A stretch of 64,000 nt of DNA from Parcubacteria bacterium RAAC4_OD1_1 (lineage in GTDB: Bacteria; Patescibacteriota; Minisyncoccia; Phycocordibacterales; UBA9973): NCBI GenBank assembly GCA_000505065.1, contig AWSN01000001.1, positions 487,772-551,771 of the forward strand, read 5' to 3'. The notes below the pieces were generated by a model that was given only the letters and a program-made list of their open reading frames with translations, searched no databases and was not told where the DNA came from. Below, one piece after another: positions 11,754-45,767 of this stretch; position 1 is the first letter of the stretch, and each line of letters opens with the position of its first letter. Position numbers and translations under genes: made by a program.

Positions 11754-12509
11754 CCAGATAGTGGTTTAACCACTATCTGGAAGATTTTCATCTTCTAGTA
11801 AGGAAACTTTTCCTCTTTCTTTTCTAATAATTTCTACAATTTCCTCTGAATGTTGTTTAAAATCTGAAATACCCTTAAAAACTTCAAGAATTCTTAAACC
11901 CTCTTCTTTCGAAACAATATTAAAATCATTATTTTCATATTCATTGTCACTAGCAAGAATAAGATCTTTTAAATCTTCTGGGATATCATGAACTTGATAA
12001 TTTTTATTTACATATCCAATAATTTTATTAAAATAATTTTCATTACCCATCAATTGAGACTTAAAAGTTCCCTGAAAAAGCGATCCGGAGCGAGAATTTT
12101 TTACATTAAAATAGTAAGTATAAGCTCCTTGTAATTTCTGCATAAATTTAGCTATTCCTCCATCTACATTTTGTTTCAAAACAAAATGAAAATGATTTGG
12201 ATTTAAACAATAAGCAACAACTAAAACTAATGGTTTATCCCCAGATAGTGGTTTAACCACTATCTGGGATTTTTTTGTCTTTCTTAAGTTTGACAAACTC
12301 ACTATTTTTTCTATTTTATTAAATTCTTTTATACTTTCAATAAATCTAAATAAATCACTCTTATCAGAAAAAATGTTTCTCTTGTCAACCCCCCTATTGT
12401 AAATATGGTAATATTCTCCATTTAATAAAGGTTGTTTTCTTAACATGTTCTTATTATATCATATAATCAAATCTACAGATAGTGGTTTAACCACTATCTG
12501 TAGATTTGA
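11754..12509 (-). mobile_element. RAYT paralog 1 unit bounded by P1 palindromes (ccagatagtggtttaaccactatctgg)
   Basis: P1 copies lie at 11754-11780 and 12241-12267 (internal), and an extended 43-nt perfect palindrome lies at 12467-12509. Confidence 0.6.
11766..12446 (-). CDS. IS200-like HuH tyrosine transposase, REP-associated (RAYT-like), paralog 1
   Basis: YHIYNRGV near the N-terminus and a HuH motif in CLNPNHFHFVL, then AYTYYF. The gene is flanked by palindrome P1 copies, one copy is internal, and P1 supplies the stop codon. Confidence 0.7.
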   Translation of the reverse strand: MLRKQPLLNGEYYHIYNRGVDKRNIFSDKSDLFRFIESIKEFNKIEKIVSLSNLRKTKKSQIVVKPLSGDKPLVLVVAYCLNPNHFHFVLKQNVDGGIAKFMQKLQGAYTYYFNVKNSRSGSLFQGTFKSQLMGNENYFNKIIGYVNKNYQVHDIPEDLKDLILASDNEYENNDFNIVSKEEGLRILEVFKGISDFKQHSEEIVEIIRKERGKVSLLEDENLPDSG

Positions 12510-12660
12510 TTAAGTATTGCATAAATTAGATTCTTATAGTAACATTCTATATGTAACAGTCCGTTTTCAAACCGGGCTTTTATTTTTCTTAAATGTCGAA
12601 TTTAAGAATAACAATTTAATAACAATTTAATAAAAAGGTCTCTTGTTTTTATTGTATTTT

Positions 12661-23466: not shown

Positions 23467-23883
23467 TCACAATATTATATTTTCTACTACTTTTACTCTA
23501 CCTAGTTTTTTATGTATATCAATATAAACAACCAAAAGGTCAAATTGCCATTCCCTATTCCCTACTCTATTACTTATGAGATAAGTTTCTACTATTCTTC
23601 GAAGTCTTTGCATTTTCCAAATATGCATATTTTCTTCTGGTCTACCTGTTTCAAACCCCCACTGTCCAGGCCTTGCCTGGACAGTGGGGGTAAATGAGAA
23701 TTGTTTTGATTTTACTTCAACAAAATATATCTTATTATCTTTTATTGCAATTATATCTATTTCTCCCCACTTTCTAGTGTAATTTCTTTCTAAAACAAAA
23801 AATCCGTGTTTCATAAGAAACCTACAGGCTAAATCTTCCCCAATTTTACCTATTTTTTGTGAATTTGAAGTAAAACTTTTCAT
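23467..23883 (-). CDS. yraN: YraN (UPF0102) family endonuclease carrying an in-frame P2 palindrome insertion
   Basis: GEIDIIA and VEVKSK motifs; the peptide PTVQARPGQWG is encoded by the 35-nt palindrome at 23656-23690. Confidence 0.7.
   Translation of the reverse strand: MKSFTSNSQKIGKIGEDLACRFLMKHGFFVLERNYTRKWGEIDIIAIKDNKIYFVEVKSKQFSFTPTVQARPGQWGFETGRPEENMHIWKMQRLRRIVETYLISNRVGNREWQFDLLVVYIDIHKKLGRVKVVENIIL
23656..23690. repeat. P2 palindrome copy (cccccactgtccaggccttgcctggacagtggggg), inside yraN
   Basis: A perfect 16-bp stem with a 3-nt loop. It is GC-rich within AT-rich DNA and open in all six frames. Confidence 0.9.
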
Positions 23884-25922: not shown

Positions 25923-26326
25923 CGAGGCGAGGTGGGCTCGCGAGATTTTTCAACAGAAAAATACTTGTGAGTAGAAAATAGGGAAGAAACAAAACTCTTG
26001 AGACTCTCGAGGCAAGGCCTAAAGAGTTTAAGGTATTAAAAAATAAAAGAAGCGGGAACCAGAGGATCCCCGTTTCAAAACTTAACCTAACTAAACCAAA
26101 TTATGATTAAAGAAAAAATAAATTGTTCAAGTCAACACAAGAACAATTTAAAAAAGTGATTACTTATATTATGAACTTCTTATAAAATAAGTCAAGAACA
26201 GAAAACCCCGGAATAAAAATCTCCGGGGTGAAAACAATTAAACAATGTCAGAAAACAGAAAACTAGAAACAAAATAATTAAACTGTGCAATAAAGAACAG
26301 TTTAATCATTATAATTATACCTACTT

Positions 26327-27124
26327 TTATACTTTTATGTCAATCATTATCGGGCAATGGTCTGAGCCCATATAGTCAGAGAGGGTTTTAAAACTTTTTA
26401 CATTTTTAATAAAAGATTTATTGGTAAAAAAGTAATCTATCCTCCAACCGACATTCCTATCACGTGCTCTTGTTTTCTGATCCCAATAAGTATAGACATC
26501 TTTTTGGTCGGGATTTAAATATCGAAAAATATCTATCCAATTATTTTTTATTAATTTATCCATCCAAGCTCTCTCGATAGGGAGAAAGCCTGTGTTGTTT
26601 ACATTCTCTTTTGGCCGAGCGAGGTCTATTTCATTATGAGCAGTATTTACATCTCCAGTAAAAATTACATTATATCCATTCTTTTCTAGTTTATTTATAA
26701 ATTTTAAAAAAGCGTCATAAAATTCTAATTTATATTTTAATCTTTCTGGTTTTATGCCAGCATTAGGAAAATAACAATTGATTAAAGCTAATTTCTTACC
26801 TTTCCCACCAATGGGACTTTTATAATACAAAACTAAAGTCCTACCTTCATCATCAAATTTTTTAATTCCCAAACCATACTCAACTCTTTCTGGTTTTACT
26901 TTTGTATAAATAGCTACACCACTATAACCCTTTCGAAGTTTTGAATATGAAAAATAAGAATAATAACCCTTTAAATTCCTGGATGCTTCATCAAGTTGCT
27001 CTGGCTCACATTTTGTTTCTTGAAAACAAACCATATCTGGATTATTAAAAGCAAACAGGGGAGTAAAGTGTCCTTGTTTTATCGTCGCCCGCAATCCATT
27101 TGTATTCCAACTTATAATTTTCAT
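26327..27124 (-). CDS. xth: Exodeoxyribonuclease III (AP endonuclease)
   Basis: MKIISWNTNGLRA, FQETKCE and a C-terminal SDHCP motif fit the EEP fold. Confidence 0.85.
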   Translation of the reverse strand: MKIISWNTNGLRATIKQGHFTPLFAFNNPDMVCFQETKCEPEQLDEASRNLKGYYSYFSYSKLRKGYSGVAIYTKVKPERVEYGLGIKKFDDEGRTLVLYYKSPIGGKGKKLALINCYFPNAGIKPERLKYKLEFYDAFLKFINKLEKNGYNVIFTGDVNTAHNEIDLARPKENVNNTGFLPIERAWMDKLIKNNWIDIFRYLNPDQKDVYTYWDQKTRARDRNVGWRIDYFFTNKSFIKNVKSFKTLSDYMGSDHCPIMIDIKV

Positions 27125-27147
27125 ATTAATTATTATATAACTATCTA

Positions 27148-27996
27148 TTAACTATTCATTTCCTTAAATAATTCTTCTGATTCTTTTTCGGTTATGTCTA
27201 TTTTTTTAGAAATTTCCCATATAACCTTAAACTGAGAAGCCACCATATCAGCAAATTCTTTACTTTCAAGAATAAAACCAAAATTATCCTTTGGAGAAGA
27301 AATGCAGGCAACCTTATTTTCATAAATCCAATAACCCATAGAAAAATCTATTCCCTCTGGGGCAACTCTTATTTCCCTGAGAAAAACTTCGCCAGTCCCC
27401 ATAAATGGATAATCATTCATATCAATAATATGCTTTTCTGGCCAAATAACATTCATATAAATATTTCTTTTCACTCTTTCAATATTAAATTGTTTAAAAA
27501 ATTCTTCTCCAAAAACTTCAATAACAAGTTTAATTGGAATATAAGCTTTAGCTTCCATATTTCTGTAAAGAAGTATGTCTCTTAAAATATTCTGAACTTC
27601 TTTTTTGCTTTCAAATATCTGAAAACGGGGAACAGAGGTTGGTTTTAAACCTTTTTGAATTTCCAAAAATGCTTTTGTTATGACATCCTTAGTATCATTA
27701 ATATTTTTTATCTGTTCATCCAAGACCATATTTATCTTTTCTGCACTAGAAACTAAAAAAGTTTTTACTCCATCTTTTTGAGAATGAACAACTAAACCTT
27801 TTTCTTGAAGATTCTTTAGATAACCATAAAGAGATGGGCGAGAAAGGCCAGTCTTTATTGCAATTTTTCCAGCTGTTTGTTCACCGTTTTCTAGTAAAAA
27901 TAGGAAAGTTTTTATTTCGTCTTCTTTAATACCTATATTTATAAGTTTCTGGCTGAGCATATTTAATATTATATTCCTTAGCTTTTCTGTTGTCAA
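27148..27996 (-). CDS. TrmB-like HTH transcriptional regulator
   Basis: The N-terminal winged helix GEQTAGKIAIKTGLSRPSLYGYLKNLQEKGLV matches the TrmB family. Confidence 0.55.
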   Translation of the reverse strand: MTTEKLRNIILNMLSQKLINIGIKEDEIKTFLFLLENGEQTAGKIAIKTGLSRPSLYGYLKNLQEKGLVVHSQKDGVKTFLVSSAEKINMVLDEQIKNINDTKDVITKAFLEIQKGLKPTSVPRFQIFESKKEVQNILRDILLYRNMEAKAYIPIKLVIEVFGEEFFKQFNIERVKRNIYMNVIWPEKHIIDMNDYPFMGTGEVFLREIRVAPEGIDFSMGYWIYENKVACISSPKDNFGFILESKEFADMVASQFKVIWEISKKIDITEKESEELFKEMNS

Positions 27997-28072
27997 GATT
28001 GTACAACACCATTTACAATAGTTGACATAAATGCTATACTATGTTTAAGTTAAACTTTTAAAAAAATAAATC

Positions 28073-28444
28073 ATGAAAAAGTTATTGTTCTTCGTAATGG
28101 TATTAATGTCAGTTTGTGCTAAAGCACAAATATCTGACAAGAAAAATCATTTCTCGTCTTTCTCAGGAGGAATGATCATTTCAGCAAATAATTCCATTTC
28201 ATTTATGGGGTTCGTGGGACCAAAAGTTTCTGTAACCCTTAATGTTGCGAAAAATTTTAAGGCTGAAGTTGGAGTAAATGCTTTCCCGGGATTAGTTTTA
28301 AAACCAGAATTAAAACCAGGATTAGCGCTGGGGTCAACTATTACTTTAAAAAATAACAATTGGAAATTAAAACCAGTTGTAGGTGTTGTTCTTATTAAAA
28401 CCAAGGAATGGCAACCAATGTTGGGCTTGGGTTTCGTCTTCTAG
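28073..28444 (+). CDS. Small secreted hypothetical protein
   Basis: 123 aa with a signal peptide; it reads like a beta-rich small protein. Confidence 0.45.
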   Translation: MKKLLFFVMVLMSVCAKAQISDKKNHFSSFSGGMIISANNSISFMGFVGPKVSVTLNVAKNFKAEVGVNAFPGLVLKPELKPGLALGSTITLKNNNWKLKPVVGVVLIKTKEWQPMLGLGFVF

Positions 28445-28571
28445 CCGAAGGTTAGAGGAATAAAAATGAAAAGCGGTCGCTATGCGATCGCTTTTTTTAA
28501 TTACTGTGAAATTTCTTGTGCACCCCAGTAGTAGAGCAAAGCTCACTACGGGGCAAGCATCTCTTATTTTA

Positions 28572-29570
28572 TCACGACTTACTATGATATTTCTTATGTA
28601 TATCTTTTAATTGACGATCTGTAATATGTGTATATATCTGAGTTGTAGCAATATTCGCATGGCCAAGCATCATTTGGACCGAGCGAATATCAGCCCCATT
28701 AGAAAGTAAATCTGTTGCAAAAGAGTGACGAATCACGTGGGGGGTCACCTTCTTAGAAATTCCTGCAATAATTGCATATTGGCGAACAATCCTTTCTATA
28801 GAGCGGGGGGTAATTCTTCCTCCGTTACTGTCCAGGCCTTGCCTGGACTTATTATTTTTGGAATACTGAATAAATAATGGCTCATCCATATCTTTTCTAT
28901 TTTTCAAATATTCTCTTATTGCATCCTTGGCGCTATCTGAAAGGAAAACGACACGAACTTTTTCACCCTTTCCACGGATAGAGAATTCATCTTTTGATAA
29001 ATCCAAGTCCCTATTGAGTGAGCAAAGTTCAGAAAGACGAAGCCCTGTCGAGAAAAAAAGCTCCAATATCGCTTTGTCTCGTAAAGATTTCAAATTCCCA
29101 TAGGTCGGACCTAGGGTCTTATTATTTTTACTTTTTGCCCCTAGGTCCGACCTAGGGGAATTTTCCAAAGGTGCTTTTAAAAGCCTATTTAATTCATCAA
29201 CAGAAATAAGATCCAAAGACCTTTCTTTTATCTTTGCAAGCTCTATCCGATCAGGTGGAAGGGAAGTGATACCTCTTTTCATAAGATATTTAAGGAAAGA
29301 ACGAAGAGCAATAAGATGATAATTCTGAGTATTCTTCTTAAGAGTTGCTGATTGTTGCCCACGAACCTTAACCCCAGGCTGACGATTAAGAAAAAGACGG
29401 AATTCACGAATCTTGTCATCATCAATATCTTTTGGATCTGTTATTTTGGAAAAATCAAAAAACCTACTTATATAATGATCATAATTATTGACCGTTTTTA
29501 GACTATTTCCTTTCTCTATTTCTACATGCTCAAGAAATTCTCTTTTCAATTGCTCTAAATAAGATGCCAT
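28572..29570 (-). CDS. xerC: Tyrosine recombinase XerC/XerD-like, carrying two in-frame palindrome insertions
   Basis: HVIRHSFAT...LGHANIATTQIYTH in the catalytic region. P2 encodes SRQGLDSNGG, and a P3 pair encodes PRSDLGAKSKNNKTLGPTYG. Confidence 0.8.
   Translation of the reverse strand: MASYLEQLKREFLEHVEIEKGNSLKTVNNYDHYISRFFDFSKITDPKDIDDDKIREFRLFLNRQPGVKVRGQQSATLKKNTQNYHLIALRSFLKYLMKRGITSLPPDRIELAKIKERSLDLISVDELNRLLKAPLENSPRSDLGAKSKNNKTLGPTYGNLKSLRDKAILELFFSTGLRLSELCSLNRDLDLSKDEFSIRGKGEKVRVVFLSDSAKDAIREYLKNRKDMDEPLFIQYSKNNKSRQGLDSNGGRITPRSIERIVRQYAIIAGISKKVTPHVIRHSFATDLLSNGADIRSVQMMLGHANIATTQIYTHITDRQLKDIHKKYHSKS
28826..28849. repeat. P2 palindrome copy inside xerC
   Basis: The sequence is actgtccaggccttgcctggact. 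Confidence 0.85.
29098..29157. repeat. Pair of P3 palindromes (cctaggtcSgacctagg) separated by 19 nt, in frame inside xerC
   Basis: ccataggtcggacctaggg ... cccctaggtccgacctagggg. The core gacctaggtc recurs in the rpsO terminator at 30071-30100. Confidence 0.8.
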
Positions 29571-29770
29571 CCAATCATTGTATCACATACTTTAATGTCG
29601 GAAAACAAAATACAGAAGAGAGTTATTTTGCCCGCACACTTAATTTGGTGTAGCTTTTTGGTTCTGCTGTTAAAGTAATTTTGTAATATTGATATATTTT
29701 ATAAACATAAAAGATATTATTATCTAAATATTCTGAAAAAGCAGAACAACACCAAATTAAGTGTGTGGGC

Positions 29771-29799
29771 TTGCATTTTTTTGTAATATGTGATACTAT
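29771..29799 (+). promoter_or_regulatory. rpsO promoter TTGCAT-17-TACTAT
   Basis: It is embedded in the right arm of the xerC-rpsO inverted repeat. Confidence 0.5.
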
Positions 29800-29808
29800 A
29801 TAAGGGTC

Positions 29809-30069
29809 ATGTTAACGACCAAGCAAAAACAAAATATTATAAAAAAGAATCAACTTCATGATAAAGATACAGGAAGTCCTGAAGTTCAGATTGCTATTAT
29901 CAGTAAAAAAATTGATGAATTAGCAAGTCACCTTAAGACTCATAAGAAAGATAATCACTCTCGTCGTGGTCTTATAAAGATGGTTGCTGATAGAAGAAAG
30001 CATTTAAAGTATCTAGAAAAGTCAGACAAGGAAAGATTTGATATCCAAGCAAAAAAAATAAAAGCTTAG
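29809..30069 (+). CDS. rpsO: 30S ribosomal protein S15
   Basis: 86 aa with the motifs [15 protein letters not shown]...RR. Confidence 0.9.
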
Positions 30070-30070
30070 T

Positions 30071-30100
30071 AAAACATTCCGACCTAGGTCGGAATGTTTT
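30071..30100 (+). terminator. Terminator after rpsO (contains P3 core)
   Basis: The sequence is aaaacattccgacctaggtcggaatgtttt. Confidence 0.7.
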
Positions 30101-30123
30101 AGTTTGATATAATTAATAACGTA

Positions 30124-30926: not shown

Positions 30927-30960
30927 CCCCACTGTCCAGGCCTTGCCTGGACAGTGGGGG
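30927..30960. repeat. P2 palindrome copy, 5' UTR of pnp (12 nt before ATG)
   Basis: The sequence is ccccactgtccaggccttgcctggacagtggggg. Confidence 0.9.
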
Positions 30961-42109: not shown

Positions 42110-44071
42110 ATGGATTATTTAGATTCCCTAAACGAAAAACAAAAAGAGGCGGTCCTTTATACAAATGGGCCTCTTTTAATTGTAGCAGGAGCCGGAGCAG
42201 GTAAAACAAAGACGATAACTCACAGAATCATTCATCTTATACACAAAGGGATAGATCCAGAAACTATTCTTGCTATTACTTTTACAAATAAGGCTGCCAA
42301 AGAAATGAAAGAAAGGGTAATGAATATGCTTGAAAAAAAAGAGCACGGGGATATTGTGGGGGATAATTTGGCACGCCCCGGATTTCGTCGGGGCGTGCCT
42401 TTCATTTCTACTTTTCACTCACTTGGAGTCTATATAATAAAAGAGAATGCTCACCTGATAGGCCTTACAAAACATTTCTCAATTATAGATGAAAGTGATG
42501 CTCTTTCTATTATAAAAAACATAATGAAAGAACGTGATATTGACCCAAAACAGCACGAGCCAAGAAAAATAAAAGGAATTATCTCTAGATCAAAAGGAGA
42601 TTTTATAGATGTAGAAGAATTTTCTAAAAATGTTGGTAACGCTATCCAAAGTATAGTAGCAATAATTTGGCGTGATTATGAGAGAGAACTAAAAAAGCAA
42701 AAAGCTTTAGACTTTGATGATCTCCTTATAGAATCTGTAAAAATTTTAAAAAACAACAAAAACATAAAAGAAAAATATCAAAACAAGTGGCGGTATCTTC
42801 ATATTGATGAATACCAAGACACAAACGAAGTTCAATACGAAATGGTTAAACTTTTAGTTGATAAAGAGAACAATCTTTGTGTAGTGGGGGACACAGATCA
42901 AAACATTTATTCTTGGCGTGGAGCAAATATAAAGAACATGCTTCATTTTGAGAAAGATTTTCCAGATGCAAAAATTGTTATGCTTGAGCAGAATTATCGC
43001 TCAACGAAAAACATAATAGAAGCCGCAAATAATGTTATTAAAAAAAATGAATACCGAGTTCCTAAAAATTTATTTACAGAAAACAAAGAAGGTGAATCTA
43101 TAAGCATCTGCGAAACATATGATGAGCTTACAGAAGCAAATCATATAGCTGAAACAATAGATATATTACTTAGAGAAGAAGAAGCCGAAAATATTGCAGT
43201 ACTTTATCGTGCAAACTTCCAATCAAGAGTTTTAGAAGAAGCAATGCTCGCAAAGCAAATTCCTTACCAGGTTTTAGGGGTAAAATTTTTTGAAAGAAAA
43301 GAAATAAAAGATTTGCTTTCATATATAAAAGCAAGTTTAAATAAAGAAAGTTTGATTGATATAAAAAGGATTATAAATGTCCCAACTCGCGGTATAGGCA
43401 AAACAACAATCACTAAACTTTTCGCAAATCAATTTACAGAAATTCCAAAAGCTACCCAAGAAAAAATAAATAATTTTTACAATCTCTTAGATAATATAAA
43501 TGAATTTATATCTACTCATAAAGTATCAGAATCCATCAAATATATAATAGAAAAAACAGGACTCGAAGAAAAATATAAACACGGATCCACAGATGAACAA
43601 GAAGATCTTGAAAATATGAAAGAGCTTGTATCTCTCGCCCTAAAATATGATGAATTAGAAGATGGAATTGAAAAGCTTCTAGAAGACGCATCACTTTCAA
43701 GCGATCAAGACACCCTAATATATGAGGAGGACAAGAAAGGGAACAAAAAGGGTGTAAGACTTATGACCGTCCATGCTTCAAAAGGACTGGAATTTAAGTA
43801 TGTCTTCATAACTGGCCTCGAACAAGATCTTTTTCCTCATATAAAAGATGGTAAAAAATCTAAAGAAGACAACGAAGAAGAAAGAAGACTTTTTTATGTT
43901 GCTATTACAAGAGCAAAACATAAGCTTTATTTATCTTATGCGACCCTTCGAACTATCTTTGGAATGAAACAAGTAAATTCTCCAAGTGAATTTATATATG
44001 ATATCCCCGAACATTTAACATCTTTTGAACAAAAATATTCCCAATCTGGCAATAGAGTAGTATATCTATAA
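42110..44071 (+). CDS. UvrD/PcrA-family ATP-dependent DNA helicase with in-frame GC-rich palindrome
   Basis: Walker A GAGAGKT, TFTNKAAKEM, and DEYQDTN motifs. The palindrome at 42370-42399 encodes ARPGFRRGVP, just before TFHSLG. Confidence 0.85.
   Translation: MDYLDSLNEKQKEAVLYTNGPLLIVAGAGAGKTKTITHRIIHLIHKGIDPETILAITFTNKAAKEMKERVMNMLEKKEHGDIVGDNLARPGFRRGVPFISTFHSLGVYIIKENAHLIGLTKHFSIIDESDALSIIKNIMKERDIDPKQHEPRKIKGIISRSKGDFIDVEEFSKNVGNAIQSIVAIIWRDYERELKKQKALDFDDLLIESVKILKNNKNIKEKYQNKWRYLHIDEYQDTNEVQYEMVKLLVDKENNLCVVGDTDQNIYSWRGANIKNMLHFEKDFPDAKIVMLEQNYRSTKNIIEAANNVIKKNEYRVPKNLFTENKEGESISICETYDELTEANHIAETIDILLREEEAENIAVLYRANFQSRVLEEAMLAKQIPYQVLGVKFFERKEIKDLLSYIKASLNKESLIDIKRIINVPTRGIGKTTITKLFANQFTEIPKATQEKINNFYNLLDNINEFISTHKVSESIKYIIEKTGLEEKYKHGSTDEQEDLENMKELVSLALKYDELEDGIEKLLEDASLSSDQDTLIYEEDKKGNKKGVRLMTVHASKGLEFKYVFITGLEQDLFPHIKDGKKSKEDNEEERRLFYVAITRAKHKLYLSYATLRTIFGMKQVNSPSEFIYDIPEHLTSFEQKYSQSGNRVVYL
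42370..42399. repeat. P4 GC-rich hairpin (ggcacgccccg-gatttcgtc-ggggcgtgcc) in frame inside uvrD
   Basis: A 10-bp perfect stem, the only such GC-rich patch in the gene. Confidence 0.7.
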
Positions 44072-44088: not shown

Positions 44089-44859
44089 ACTGTCCAGGCC
44101 TTGCCTGGACAATATTTAATATATATAATAGATAATATGTCTATTAGACCTATCAAATTCGCACCAAATGAAAATTACCACATATACAATCGTGGTGTAA
44201 ATAAAATGAATATTTTTATAGATCATAATGATTATGATCGTTTTATGAAATTAATGTATGTATCAAATTCTACTACCAATAAAAAATTTACCGACATAGA
44301 AACAAGTCCAGGCAAGGCCTGGACACTAGAAAAAGATAGTGATTTGGTAGATATTGTTAGTTATTGTCTTATGCCTAATCATTTTCATTTTATTCTTAGA
44401 GAAAAAATTGAAAATGGCATAAGTATATTTATGCACAGACTCTCTACTTCTTACTCTATGTATTTTAATAAAAAATACGATCGTAATGGAGCACTTTTCC
44501 AAGGAAAATTTAAGTCAGAACATATAAATAATGACAATTATTTTAAATATCTATTTTCATATATTCACTTAAATCCAATAAAACTTATACAAAAAGACTG
44601 GAAAGAAATTGGAATAAAAAATATTGATGTAGCACAAAAATATCTTTTAAAATATCCCTATTCTAGTTTTTTGGATATAATAGAAAAAATTAACAGAATA
44701 GAGTCAAAAATAATAAATAAACTAAGTATTCCTAATTATTTTGGTTCTCCTGAAAATTTTAAAAAGGAAATTTTTGATTGGTTGATAGTTAAAATATGAA
44801 TATTAATAAAAATAAATTTAATAGTGTTAGGAATACTGTCCAGGCAAGGCCTGGACAGT
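44089..44859 (+). mobile_element. RAYT paralog 2 unit bounded by P2 palindromes
   Basis: P2 copies lie at 44089-44111, 44306-44324 (internal, encoding SPGKAWT) and 44835-44859. Confidence 0.55.
44136..44799 (+). CDS. IS200-like HuH tyrosine transposase, REP-associated (RAYT-like), paralog 2 (ORF track starts at TTG 44101)
   Basis: YHIYNRGV near the N-terminus, HuH in CLMPNHFHFIL, then YIHLNPIK and YPYSSF. P2 copies lie upstream, internally and downstream. Confidence 0.7.
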
Positions 44860-45767
44860 GGAAATATAAAGCCAAAAAGCATCTGGGGCAAAACTTTTTA
44901 AAATCTAAAGAAGCAATTAAAACTATATGTGATGCTGGAAAAGTAGAAAAAGAAGATATTATCTTGGAAATTGGCCCCGGGAAAGGGGTTCTCACTGAGG
45001 AGTTGCTAAAAAGAGGGGCAAAAATTCTAGCAATTGAAAAAGACAATGATTTAATTAATTTTTTAATAGAAAAATTTGAATCTTTTCTTCCGTCCACACC
45101 GGGTATGGACATAGATACAAAAAGGTTAAATATAATAAATGAAGATATTTTGGATTTTGATATTTCAAAATATGGACTTTTAGATAAAAAATACAAAATA
45201 ATTGCAAATATTCCATATAATATAACAGGGGCAATAATAAAGAAATTCTTAAGTGAGATCAAAAATAAGCCTATTTTAATGGCTATTTTGGTGCAAAAAG
45301 AGGTTGCGGAAAGAATTGTTGCAAAAAACAGAAAAATAAATAAGCAAAAAACAGAAGCTGTCCAGGCCTTGCCTGGACAGTCCAGGCCTTGCCTGGACAG
45401 TGGGGGGAAGGAGAGTATATTGTCATTGAGTGTGAAAGCTTATGGAGATCCTAAATATATAATGAAAGTATCAAAAAAATATTTCTCACCAGCCCCAAAA
45501 GTGGACTCCGCGATAATACTTATAGATAATATTTCCGATAAAAATTTTAAAAACAATGATGAGGAAAAAACCTTTTTTGATCTAGTTCATGCTGGATTTA
45601 GTCATAAAAGAAAATTATTTATAAAAAACATAGAAAATTTAGATTACCAAAAAGAAAAAATTAAAAAAATGTTTGAAATATTAGAAATTGATAAAAAAAT
45701 AAGAGCAGAAGATATACCTTTTTATAAATGGATAGAAATGAAAGATTTTTTAACTACAAAAAACTAG
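44796..45767 (+). CDS. rsmA: 16S rRNA (adenine1518/1519-N6)-dimethyltransferase RsmA/KsgA carrying three in-frame P2 palindromes
   Basis: LGQNFL and EIGPGKGVLT motifs. The start ATG overlaps the RAYT stop (ATGA). One P2 copy sits in the N-terminal extension (TVQARPGQW), and a tandem pair sits mid-gene (AVQALPGQSRPCLDSGG). Confidence 0.8.
   Translation: MNINKNKFNSVRNTVQARPGQWKYKAKKHLGQNFLKSKEAIKTICDAGKVEKEDIILEIGPGKGVLTEELLKRGAKILAIEKDNDLINFLIEKFESFLPSTPGMDIDTKRLNIINEDILDFDISKYGLLDKKYKIIANIPYNITGAIIKKFLSEIKNKPILMAILVQKEVAERIVAKNRKINKQKTEAVQALPGQSRPCLDSGGKESILSLSVKAYGDPKYIMKVSKKYFSPAPKVDSAIILIDNISDKNFKNNDEEKTFFDLVHAGFSHKRKLFIKNIENLDYQKEKIKKMFEILEIDKKIRAEDIPFYKWIEMKDFLTTKN
45358..45407. repeat. 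Tandem double P2 palindrome inside rsmA
   Basis: ctgtccaggccttgcctggacag is followed immediately by tccaggccttgcctggacagtgggggg. Confidence 0.9.

Follow-up and report, generated by a model that had tools for sequence, protein, structure and literature searches.

Here we describe palindromic DNA inserted in a xerC-like recombinase gene, in a stretch of 64,000 nucleotides (hereafter the window) from Parcubacteria bacterium RAAC4_OD1_1 (contig AWSN01000001.1, positions 487,772–551,771). The host is a tiny uncultured bacterium of the Candidate Phyla Radiation (CPR), Candidatus Nomurabacteria; the GC content of the window is ~33%, and ~90% of it is coding. The xerC-like open reading frame (ORF; 28572–29570, minus strand) encodes a 332-aa Xer-type tyrosine recombinase, and an identical gene occurs in three separate assemblies, two of these from one sequencing run. 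In profile searches its product matched Pfam Phage_integrase at 137 bits together with a SAM-like N-domain, and the XerA, XerC and XerD models of NCBIfam matched best, with only the XerA-type model over its cut-off (222.9 vs 220). The R-K-H-R-H-Y catalytic residues expected of the Phage_integrase domain are all present (R178, K201, H278, R281, H304 and Y313), each in an invariant column of the homologue alignment.

Palindromes within the xerC-like gene

Two palindromes of the type CCTAGGTCSGACCTAGG lie in this gene, within 1–2 nt of where a preliminary description of the sequence had placed them: CATAGGTCGGACCTAGG at 29099–29115, with one mismatch, and the perfect CCTAGGTCCGACCTAGG at 29140–29156 (sequence reading and pattern search). 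The pattern has two matches where 0.02 are expected, a count reached in none of 100 shuffles. With their extra C/G pairs the palindromes extend over 29097–29116 (CCCATAGGTCGGACCTAGGG, imperfect) and 29138–29158 (CCCCTAGGTCCGACCTAGGGG, perfect), leaving a gap of 21–24 nt rather than the 19 nt originally given. Both are read in the frame of the ORF, as PRSDLGAKSKNNKTLGPTYG, and alignment to solved Xer structures agrees with the earlier placement of this peptide between the core-binding and catalytic domains. The gene also carries a palindrome of a second family, P2, again as first described: its core GTCCAGGCCTTGCCTGGAC at 28830–28848, with an 8-bp stem and a 3-nt loop, is translated as SRQGLD in a loop of the catalytic domain, and is one of eight exact copies in the window, where none is expected. 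We refer to the inter-domain linker, which holds the doublet, as site 1 and to the catalytic-domain loop, which holds P2 in the window, as site 2; L-numbers denote the DNA loci of related genomes with which we compared the window.

The palindrome pair of site 1 is one inverted-doublet unit and not two separate insertions. This double-hairpin element (29092–29163, minus strand) consists of arms at 29139–29163 and 29092–29116 around a spacer, A-rich on the coding strand, at 29117–29138, and is translated as ..NSPRSDLGAKSKNNKTLGPTYGNL.. in the linker joining the two domains. One arm is centred on G and the other on C, which sets them in opposite orientation, and AAATTCC on the outer side of one arm can pair with GGAATTT on that of the other. 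As the minimum-free-energy fold, the 76-nt stretch forms a single 24-bp hairpin with a 22-nt loop, at -44.4 kcal/mol as RNA (z = -8.9) and -26.2 kcal/mol as DNA. Across eight related copies, pair counts do not discriminate between a two-hairpin and a long-hairpin model, each of which pairs ~89% of cells; under the long-hairpin model, five pairs are changed on both sides and the covariation score lies above those of all 500 shuffles, albeit in this small sample of eight sequences. The arms of the intergenic doublets in L028 and L058 are imperfect palindromes singly, yet exact inverted copies of one another, and complementarity between arms is retained in these two and at site 2 of L051. Inverted repeats around a short linker, able to fold as one hairpin, are the arrangement of the inverted doublets of repetitive extragenic palindromes (REPs) known as REPINs or bacterial interspersed mosaic elements (BIMEs; PMC3116915, PMC3333891). 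We therefore describe the xerC doublet as two CCTAGGTCSGACCTAGG repeats inverted around a 22-nt AT-rich spacer, and the P2 copy as a singlet of the second family.

The reading frame leaves its mark on the doublet. A CCTAGG arm is free of stop codons only in the frame that reads PRSDLG, as the perfect palindrome does, and since the arms are offset by 41 nt, the second is read in a different frame, in which a perfect copy would yield TAG. The coding-strand mismatch of the imperfect palindrome turns this stop into TAT (Tyr); all genic doublets have TAT in the second arm, while the intergenic doublet of L035 has TAG in both.

A 12-mer, CTTATTATTTTT (AAAAATAATAAG on the coding strand), occurs in the window only at 28848–28859 and 29118–29129, each time abutting one of the xerC palindromes. 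On the plus strand each palindrome with its 12-mer makes a hairpin followed by a T-run, terminator-like and antisense to xerC. Half of AAAAATAATAAG is ancestral coding sequence, and we draw no conclusion from it.

Palindrome families and RAYT-like transposase genes

The full form of P2 is a 35–37-nt palindrome, CCCCCACTGTCCAGGCCTTGCCTGGACAGTGGGGG; none of its six frames contains a stop codon, and the window has P2 copies translated in five. Six of the eight P2 copies lie in frame within ORFs: one in XerC, one in YraN/UPF0102, three in RsmA and one in a transposase-like gene. The YraN/UPF0102 copy (23655–23691) is full-length at 37 nt and reads PTVQARPGQWG, and another full-length copy (30927–30959) is intergenic, just 5' of pnp. 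The remaining copies, five of the eight, lie at or near the transposase-like gene, the other three being distant from it. This gene (RAYT-1; 44137–44799, plus strand) is bordered by P2 on both sides in inverted orientation, at 44092 on its 5' side (44091–44111, CTT loop) and at 44838 on its 3' side (44835–44859, AAG loop), the latter in frame in the RsmA N-terminus (TVQARPGQW); a third copy lies in frame inside it (44306–44324, SPGKAWT). Farther into RsmA, a tandem P2 pair (45358–45401) is read in frame as VQALPGQSRPCLDSG, within a 25-aa insertion that is missing from two orthologues.

RAYT-1 resembles the REP-associated tyrosine transposases (RAYTs, or TnpA_REP) that, with REP and REPIN elements, make up the systems called 'REPtrons' (PMC3333891, PMC3116915, PMC5581495, PMC8266576). 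It belongs with the Y1 transposases that carry a HUH motif and a catalytic Tyr: its LMPNHFHFIL and YIHLNP motifs are conserved, with LMPNHFH and YIHLNP in invariant or nearly invariant columns, and it scores 35.9 bits against Pfam Y1_Tnp (cut-off 23). An AlphaFold (AF2) model of the protein, with a mean predicted local distance difference test score (pLDDT) of 92, has as its top fold match in the PDB 4ER8, the E. coli TnpA_REP with a REP hairpin (E 6e-6; template-modelling score 0.65 on target), ahead of the ISDra2, IS608 and IS200 transposases. The family has >7,600 members, mostly from CPR taxa among the matches listed, and some sources name the protein RayT. The order UvrD-RAYT-RsmA is kept, with flanking P2-type palindromes, in L133 (78% identity) and L134 (66%), as for a single-locus, vertically inherited gene, although the window still has two divergent RAYT-like genes. 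In one syntenic relative both flanking copies have the compensated stem variant GCCCAGGC..GCCTGGGC.

Two further families each border a Y1 gene of their own. In L017 and L047, from metagenome-assembled genomes (MAGs) of Nomurabacteria, a RAYT-like gene (45–48% identical) is flanked by the CCTAGGTC palindrome, that is, the CCTAGGTCSGACCTAGG type of the xerC doublet, and has one in-frame CCTAGGTCSGACCTAGG copy inside it, directly after the HUH motif. Within the window, the second RAYT-like gene (RAYT-2; 11766–12446, minus strand; 41% identical to RAYT-1; Y1_Tnp 32.8 bits) is associated with the P3 palindrome, CCAGATAGTGGTT-T-AACCACTATCTGG on the plus strand and 27–49 nt in length. P3 lies upstream of the gene (12464–12512), in frame inside it (12240–12268) and at its end (11754–11780), where it supplies the TAA stop codon; there are no P3 copies away from RAYT-2 in the window, and gene and palindromes together might represent either a young REPtron or a unit of the IS200 kind. 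This association of palindrome families with RAYT-like genes goes beyond the preliminary description.

An internal copy of the gene's own palindrome was present in five of seven RAYT-like genes examined. Peptides related to the SPGKAWT of RAYT-1 (SPGRTW, RPGLAW, TPGLIW) occupy the same spot in its homologues (P0122–P0174) down to ~55% identity, with K/L swaps that match AAG/CTT loop flipping, and the internal P2 segment of RAYT-1 is no longer than the corresponding segment of homologues without the palindrome. The P2 loop is likewise flipped between genomes at orthologous sites, in YraN (23655–23691 vs L129 13363–13397) and in RsmA (44835–44859 vs L133), which changes the peptide between QARPGQ and QALPGQ; each flip is either an inversion in place or the result of two insertions in opposite orientations. 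The P2 apex, GC-CTT-GC or GC-AAG-GC, recurs on other stems (ACTTGGAGGCCTTGCCTCCAAGT, TTACCGAAGCAAGGCTTCGGTAA) in L135 (10661–10683, 14926–14948) and at site 2 of L056, which suggests a superfamily of palindromes in which the loop region is conserved and the stems co-vary.

The palindromes are dispersed well beyond the window. A scan of one genome per species, over 185,579 species, found the exact CCTAGGTC 17-mer in 45 stretches, 41 of them from CPR MAGs (Nomurabacteria, Paceibacteria, Parcubacteria and Saccharibacteria), where by a rough estimate about one match in CPR DNA is expected by chance. A genome often has several copies at unrelated loci, up to five or six exact ones in some MAGs. Roughly a quarter of the CPR sites, as counted from ORF lengths, are genic and in frame, and include XerC as well as CysRS-like and UvrC-like ORFs (the latter two named by local peptide motifs alone); most of the remainder lie between genes and have extended stems and T-runs. 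A search for the family, as the preliminary description had proposed, thus finds it at unrelated genic and intergenic sites, mainly in CPR MAGs. More generally, 1.13 Mb of CPR loci held 131 GC-rich perfect palindromes, compared with eight in shuffles. In loci not selected for palindromes, 30 of 86 GC-rich palindromes were within ORFs, with genic copies making up 10 of 15 in the P2-type family and four of six in the AGGTCNGACCT family. The exact CCTAGGTCSGACCTAGG palindrome is also found, mostly in intergenic positions, in several MAGs of Saccharibacteria, a different CPR class (L004, L005, L013, L018–L020, L024, L027, L029–L031, L036, L041, L043, L045, L046 and L048).

Other features of the window resemble these elements to varying degrees. 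The preliminary description had linked the doublet to the rpsO terminator hairpin through a shared core, and GACCTAGGTC is indeed present there, at 30081–30090, with an 11-mer in common with a doublet arm; chance alone would give 0.6 matches to a 10-mer when one mismatch is tolerated. The hairpin (30070–30101, plus strand) is an ordinary intrinsic terminator and not a member of the family, being orthologous among relatives with a stem that differs, and covaries, in each. In a UvrD/PcrA-like gene, GGCACGCCCCGGATTTCGTCGGGGCGTGCC at 42370–42399, a palindrome with an 11-bp stem and arms of 91% GC, is read in frame as ARPGFRRGV; two orthologues have a shorter, unrelated sequence at this position, and the palindrome may represent a further family. 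A CRISPR array can be ruled out as the identity of P2, whose copies are irregularly spaced, and so, by inspection, can a dif-like Xer site, since a Xer central region would need more than the 1–3 nt at the centre. The AT-rich divergent region between xerC and rpsO contains a 22-nt inverted repeat unique in the window (29630–29651/29749–29770; 95% complementary, arms 97 nt apart), which could be regulatory, origin-related or akin to a miniature inverted-repeat transposable element. Around 26000–30000 the cumulative GC skew of the window reaches its minimum and genes mostly on the minus strand give way to genes mostly on the plus strand; a replication origin may adjoin xerC.

Insert hotspots in recombinase homologues and constraint on the DNA

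To position the inserts we relied on alignment to solved Xer structures, as an AlphaFold model of XerC built from 51 close homologues reached a pLDDT of only 53, too low for placing them. The P2 segment faces a 9-residue gap in P. abyssi XerA, and the double palindrome falls between the two domains, where the linker measures 28 aa in the window vs 7 aa in E. coli XerD and in relatives of 60–70% identity. The relatives with a 7-aa linker read LLxAPxGxDxKxLRDKA at site 1. In agreement with this, 120 homologues of 78–100% identity range in length from 308 to 341 aa (mode 311) and are hypervariable at both sites, so that comparison with XerC/XerD relatives, suggested with the original description, locates both segments to indel positions.

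Across these relatives the two sites carry alternative inserts or none, with at least six kinds of palindrome-encoding insert. Site 1 may hold the long doublet (PRSDLGAKSK..GPTYG), a single arm (PRSDLGAK), a short doublet (ERSDLKGSRGPTSG), an insert of the PKQGLG type or no palindrome, whereas site 2 may hold P2 (SRQGLD), the short or the long doublet, PKQGLG, ISGSPTSRN, LSAQAG, others, or a plain GAKGN loop. The states of the two sites combine freely across homologues, and of two homologues with 99% identity outside site 2, one has a short doublet there and the other does not. In L051 a single gene has a doublet unit of ~62 nt, counting its spacer, at site 1 and again at site 2, and a short doublet whose arms are separated by GGGAGCACT occupies site 1 in L059 but site 2 in L058, L132 and L136; the same units are therefore found at non-homologous positions. 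Doublets are also found between genes, in L035, L058 and L028.

Orthologues with the extra peptide all have palindromic DNA, and homologues without palindromes show unrelated linkers. The observation that would have spoken against insertion, an extra peptide kept without palindromic DNA, was thus not made among the homologues. Comparison with close and distant Xer homologues supports the view that both extra segments of XerC are lineage-specific inserts. What had been described as two palindromic families inserted independently in the gene does correspond, in this sense, to inserts of recurring palindromic DNA from two families, with the amendment that the pair counts as one doublet unit.

The doublet is also conserved as DNA. 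Among seven orthologues, third-codon-position identity where the amino acid is identical was 82% in arm 1, 93% in the spacer and 100% (125/125) in arm 2, compared with 54% in the rest of the gene; this excess at synonymous sites implies that constraint acts on the DNA and not on the peptide. Moreover, in four orthologues a change from CTA to ATA, which replaces Leu with Ile, re-pairs with the TAT codon of the other arm to give a perfect stem.

Relation to known systems and origin of the inserts

In layout, enzyme fold and doublet structure, these elements are REP/RAYT-like. They are short GC-rich palindromes, with the geometry of P2 (8-bp stem, 3-nt loop) equal to that of the S. maltophilia REP; some are singlets and others doublets, inverted around a short linker; cognate palindromes border a Y1/HUH gene that is inherited vertically at a single locus and whose modelled product has a fold nearest to E. 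coli TnpA_REP; and different families accompany different RAYT genes in one genome. Classical REPs, however, are extragenic by definition, carry a GTAG/CGTC tag and number in the hundreds, and the elements described here lack two of these defining features, the extragenic location and the tag. Most copies in the window are within ORFs and translated (six of eight P2 copies and both doublet arms), there are a few to ~10 copies per genome, a copy is often inside the transposase gene itself, and the enzyme, from a CPR host, belongs to a distinct clade of ~220 aa that scores under the RAYT cut-off of NCBIfam. Full-text searches of the literature collection consulted turned up no publication in which REP/RAYT systems are tied to CPR bacteria.

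In their coding location the elements are closer to the Rickettsia palindromic elements (RPEs), which are ~100–150 bp in length, each with its own conserved peptide, and have no linked transposase in the review consulted (PMC10969869). As with RPEs, palindromic repeats are inserted in frame in unrelated genes of a small, AT-rich, gene-dense genome, here XerC, YraN, RsmA, RAYT-like genes and, in relatives, CysRS-like and UvrC-like ORFs, and add peptide segments at positions compatible with the fold. They differ in unit length (19–72 nt), in comprising several families beside candidate mobilising enzymes and in their CPR host, and the likeness drawn here is in the effect on proteins. With IS200/IS605 elements such as IS608 and ISDra2 they share a Y1 HUH gene with subterminal hairpins, single-strand chemistry and the absence of target duplication, but RAYT-1 is syntenically fixed, its palindromes are dispersed without the gene, and at ~220 aa it exceeds the 130–150 aa of a typical TnpA; RAYT-2 with P3 is compatible with a true insertion sequence (IS). 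GC-rich palindromic clusters and double-hairpin elements have also spread in the AT-rich mitochondrial genomes of fungi, and the mitochondria of Nematomorpha have coding palindromes (PMC6649704). These organellar elements, for which no RAYT is known, share with ours GC-rich hairpins in AT-rich genomes, some of them coding and translated.

We consider it probable that the xerC palindromes belong, as REP/REPIN-like elements, to RAYT-type systems of Nomurabacteria and other, related CPR bacteria, and that permissive loops of the recombinase tolerate them in frame. This reading draws on what was observed directly: there are families of repeats with in-frame copies in genes, they are placed around RAYT-like genes, the homologues show the indel pattern described above, and the DNA is conserved at the nucleotide level. 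That RAYT-like enzymes mobilise the palindromes we infer from position and from the known behaviour of TnpA_REP (PMC3333891, PMC8266576); the P2-family gene, RAYT-1, lies 15 kb from the P2 copy of xerC. By this analogy, a Y1 transposase would bind the hairpin on single-stranded DNA, cut it and rejoin it at new sites, and in so gene-dense a genome many landings would fall in genes. The surviving copies would be those that kept the frame, were free of stops and lay in surface loops, as the inter-domain linker and the catalytic-domain loop would, and these two loops would have been hit repeatedly, with settled copies then translated and vertically inherited. We infer that tolerance of the loops, rather than target preference, explains the hotspots.

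Several observations weigh against this interpretation. The link between palindromes and RAYT-like genes is positional, and the window has no RAYT-like gene with CCTAGGTC flanks. The only NCBIfam match of RAYT-1 is REP_Tyr_transpos, at 44 bits under a cut-off of 80; phmmer found no match to RAYT-1 among PDB sequences, and with a profile of 43 homologues the matches there were marginal (E 0.18–0.5), to RAYT and IS200 proteins alike; of these comparisons the fold search was the informative one. No GTAG/CGTC tetranucleotide was found at the P2 copies, whose flanks are (C/T)ACT, ACAA, AGCT and GACA, and the doublet arms have CTAG inside the stem, with neither GTAG nor CGTC. Copy numbers are far under those of classical REPs: on the 704-kb contig of one close relative that carries the xerC doublet, the 17-mer has two exact copies and no more, and the doublet may be an orphan in that genome. 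A filled/empty pair, L136 and L137, has 45 nt in place of 15 nt, with no target duplication or clean insertion boundary, and looks like a replacement, which is not recent given alleles 6.6% apart in DNA; and the neighbour-joining tree resolves too poorly to count independent insertions. Lastly, the synonymous conservation of the doublet is stronger than passive selfish DNA predicts.

It is because of this last point that another explanation stays alive, in which the xerC hairpins, whatever their origin, are kept by selection as nucleic-acid structures, possibly as mRNA structure that sets XerC expression or as a protein-bound DNA site. The compensatory change that re-forms the stem and the very stable fold of the doublet are consistent with it, as is the scarcity, on the relative's 704-kb contig, of other copies that might homogenise the one in xerC. 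Nonetheless we think it unlikely, as many close homologues have no palindrome or one of another family, so that xerC needs no single structure, and the same palindromes lie in unrelated genes and spacers. An Rfam scan of the whole window, moreover, returned four tRNAs only and matched none of the palindromes.

There is a slim chance that the dispersed elements spread by other means, through homologous recombination, gene conversion or an unseen transposase, and that the copies beside Y1 genes are IS200/IS605-like ends. RAYT-1, fixed at UvrD-RAYT-RsmA across 66–78% identity, does not behave as a hopping IS, its fold is nearest to TnpA_REP, and three families each have their own Y1 gene. P3, on the other hand, is restricted to its transposase gene as in an IS, and loops that are flipped between orthologous sites point to recombination inside palindromes. 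While the filled and empty alleles do resemble patch replacement without target duplication, IS200/IS605-type transposition makes no target duplications either.

Since identical copies are dispersed, we exclude the explanations that act on the protein or at a single locus. That the extra peptides were selected for recombinase function, with palindromic DNA as a by-product, is very improbable: the retention of PRSDLG...GPTYG in ~17 of the closest homologues would fit, but the same DNA also lies between genes, in genes for unrelated proteins and flanking transposase genes, synonymous positions are conserved while the amino acid changes (L to I) where pairing is restored, and homologues 99% identical outside the loop differ in whether the insert is present. 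Template switching at replication can create perfect local inverted repeats, yet it, or an assembly artefact, could hardly account for identical sequences at many unlinked sites in many genomes, or for an exact gene in three assemblies, even with two of these from the same sequencing run.

If the palindromes are indeed RAYT-type elements tolerated in frame, then extragenic REPs and in-frame coding palindromes of the RPE kind meet in this genome, where hairpins of the families that border RAYT-like genes lie mostly in ORFs and are read in up to five frames, and where the same two loops of an essential recombinase repeatedly carry palindromes across many relatives. The spread of coding palindromes would then have a testable enzyme-substrate pair, part of the protein length variation among CPR bacteria would be explained, and some 'lineage-specific insertions' in CPR proteins would be mobile DNA and not adaptations. 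More tentatively, and with considerable doubt, we suggest that CPR RAYT-type transposases may regularly seed REP hairpins into coding sequence, some of which, including those in the transposase gene, are kept by nucleotide-level selection as functional DNA or RNA structures. Were this so, it would account for loop diversity in essential proteins and offer an enzyme-linked model for coding palindromes such as RPEs.

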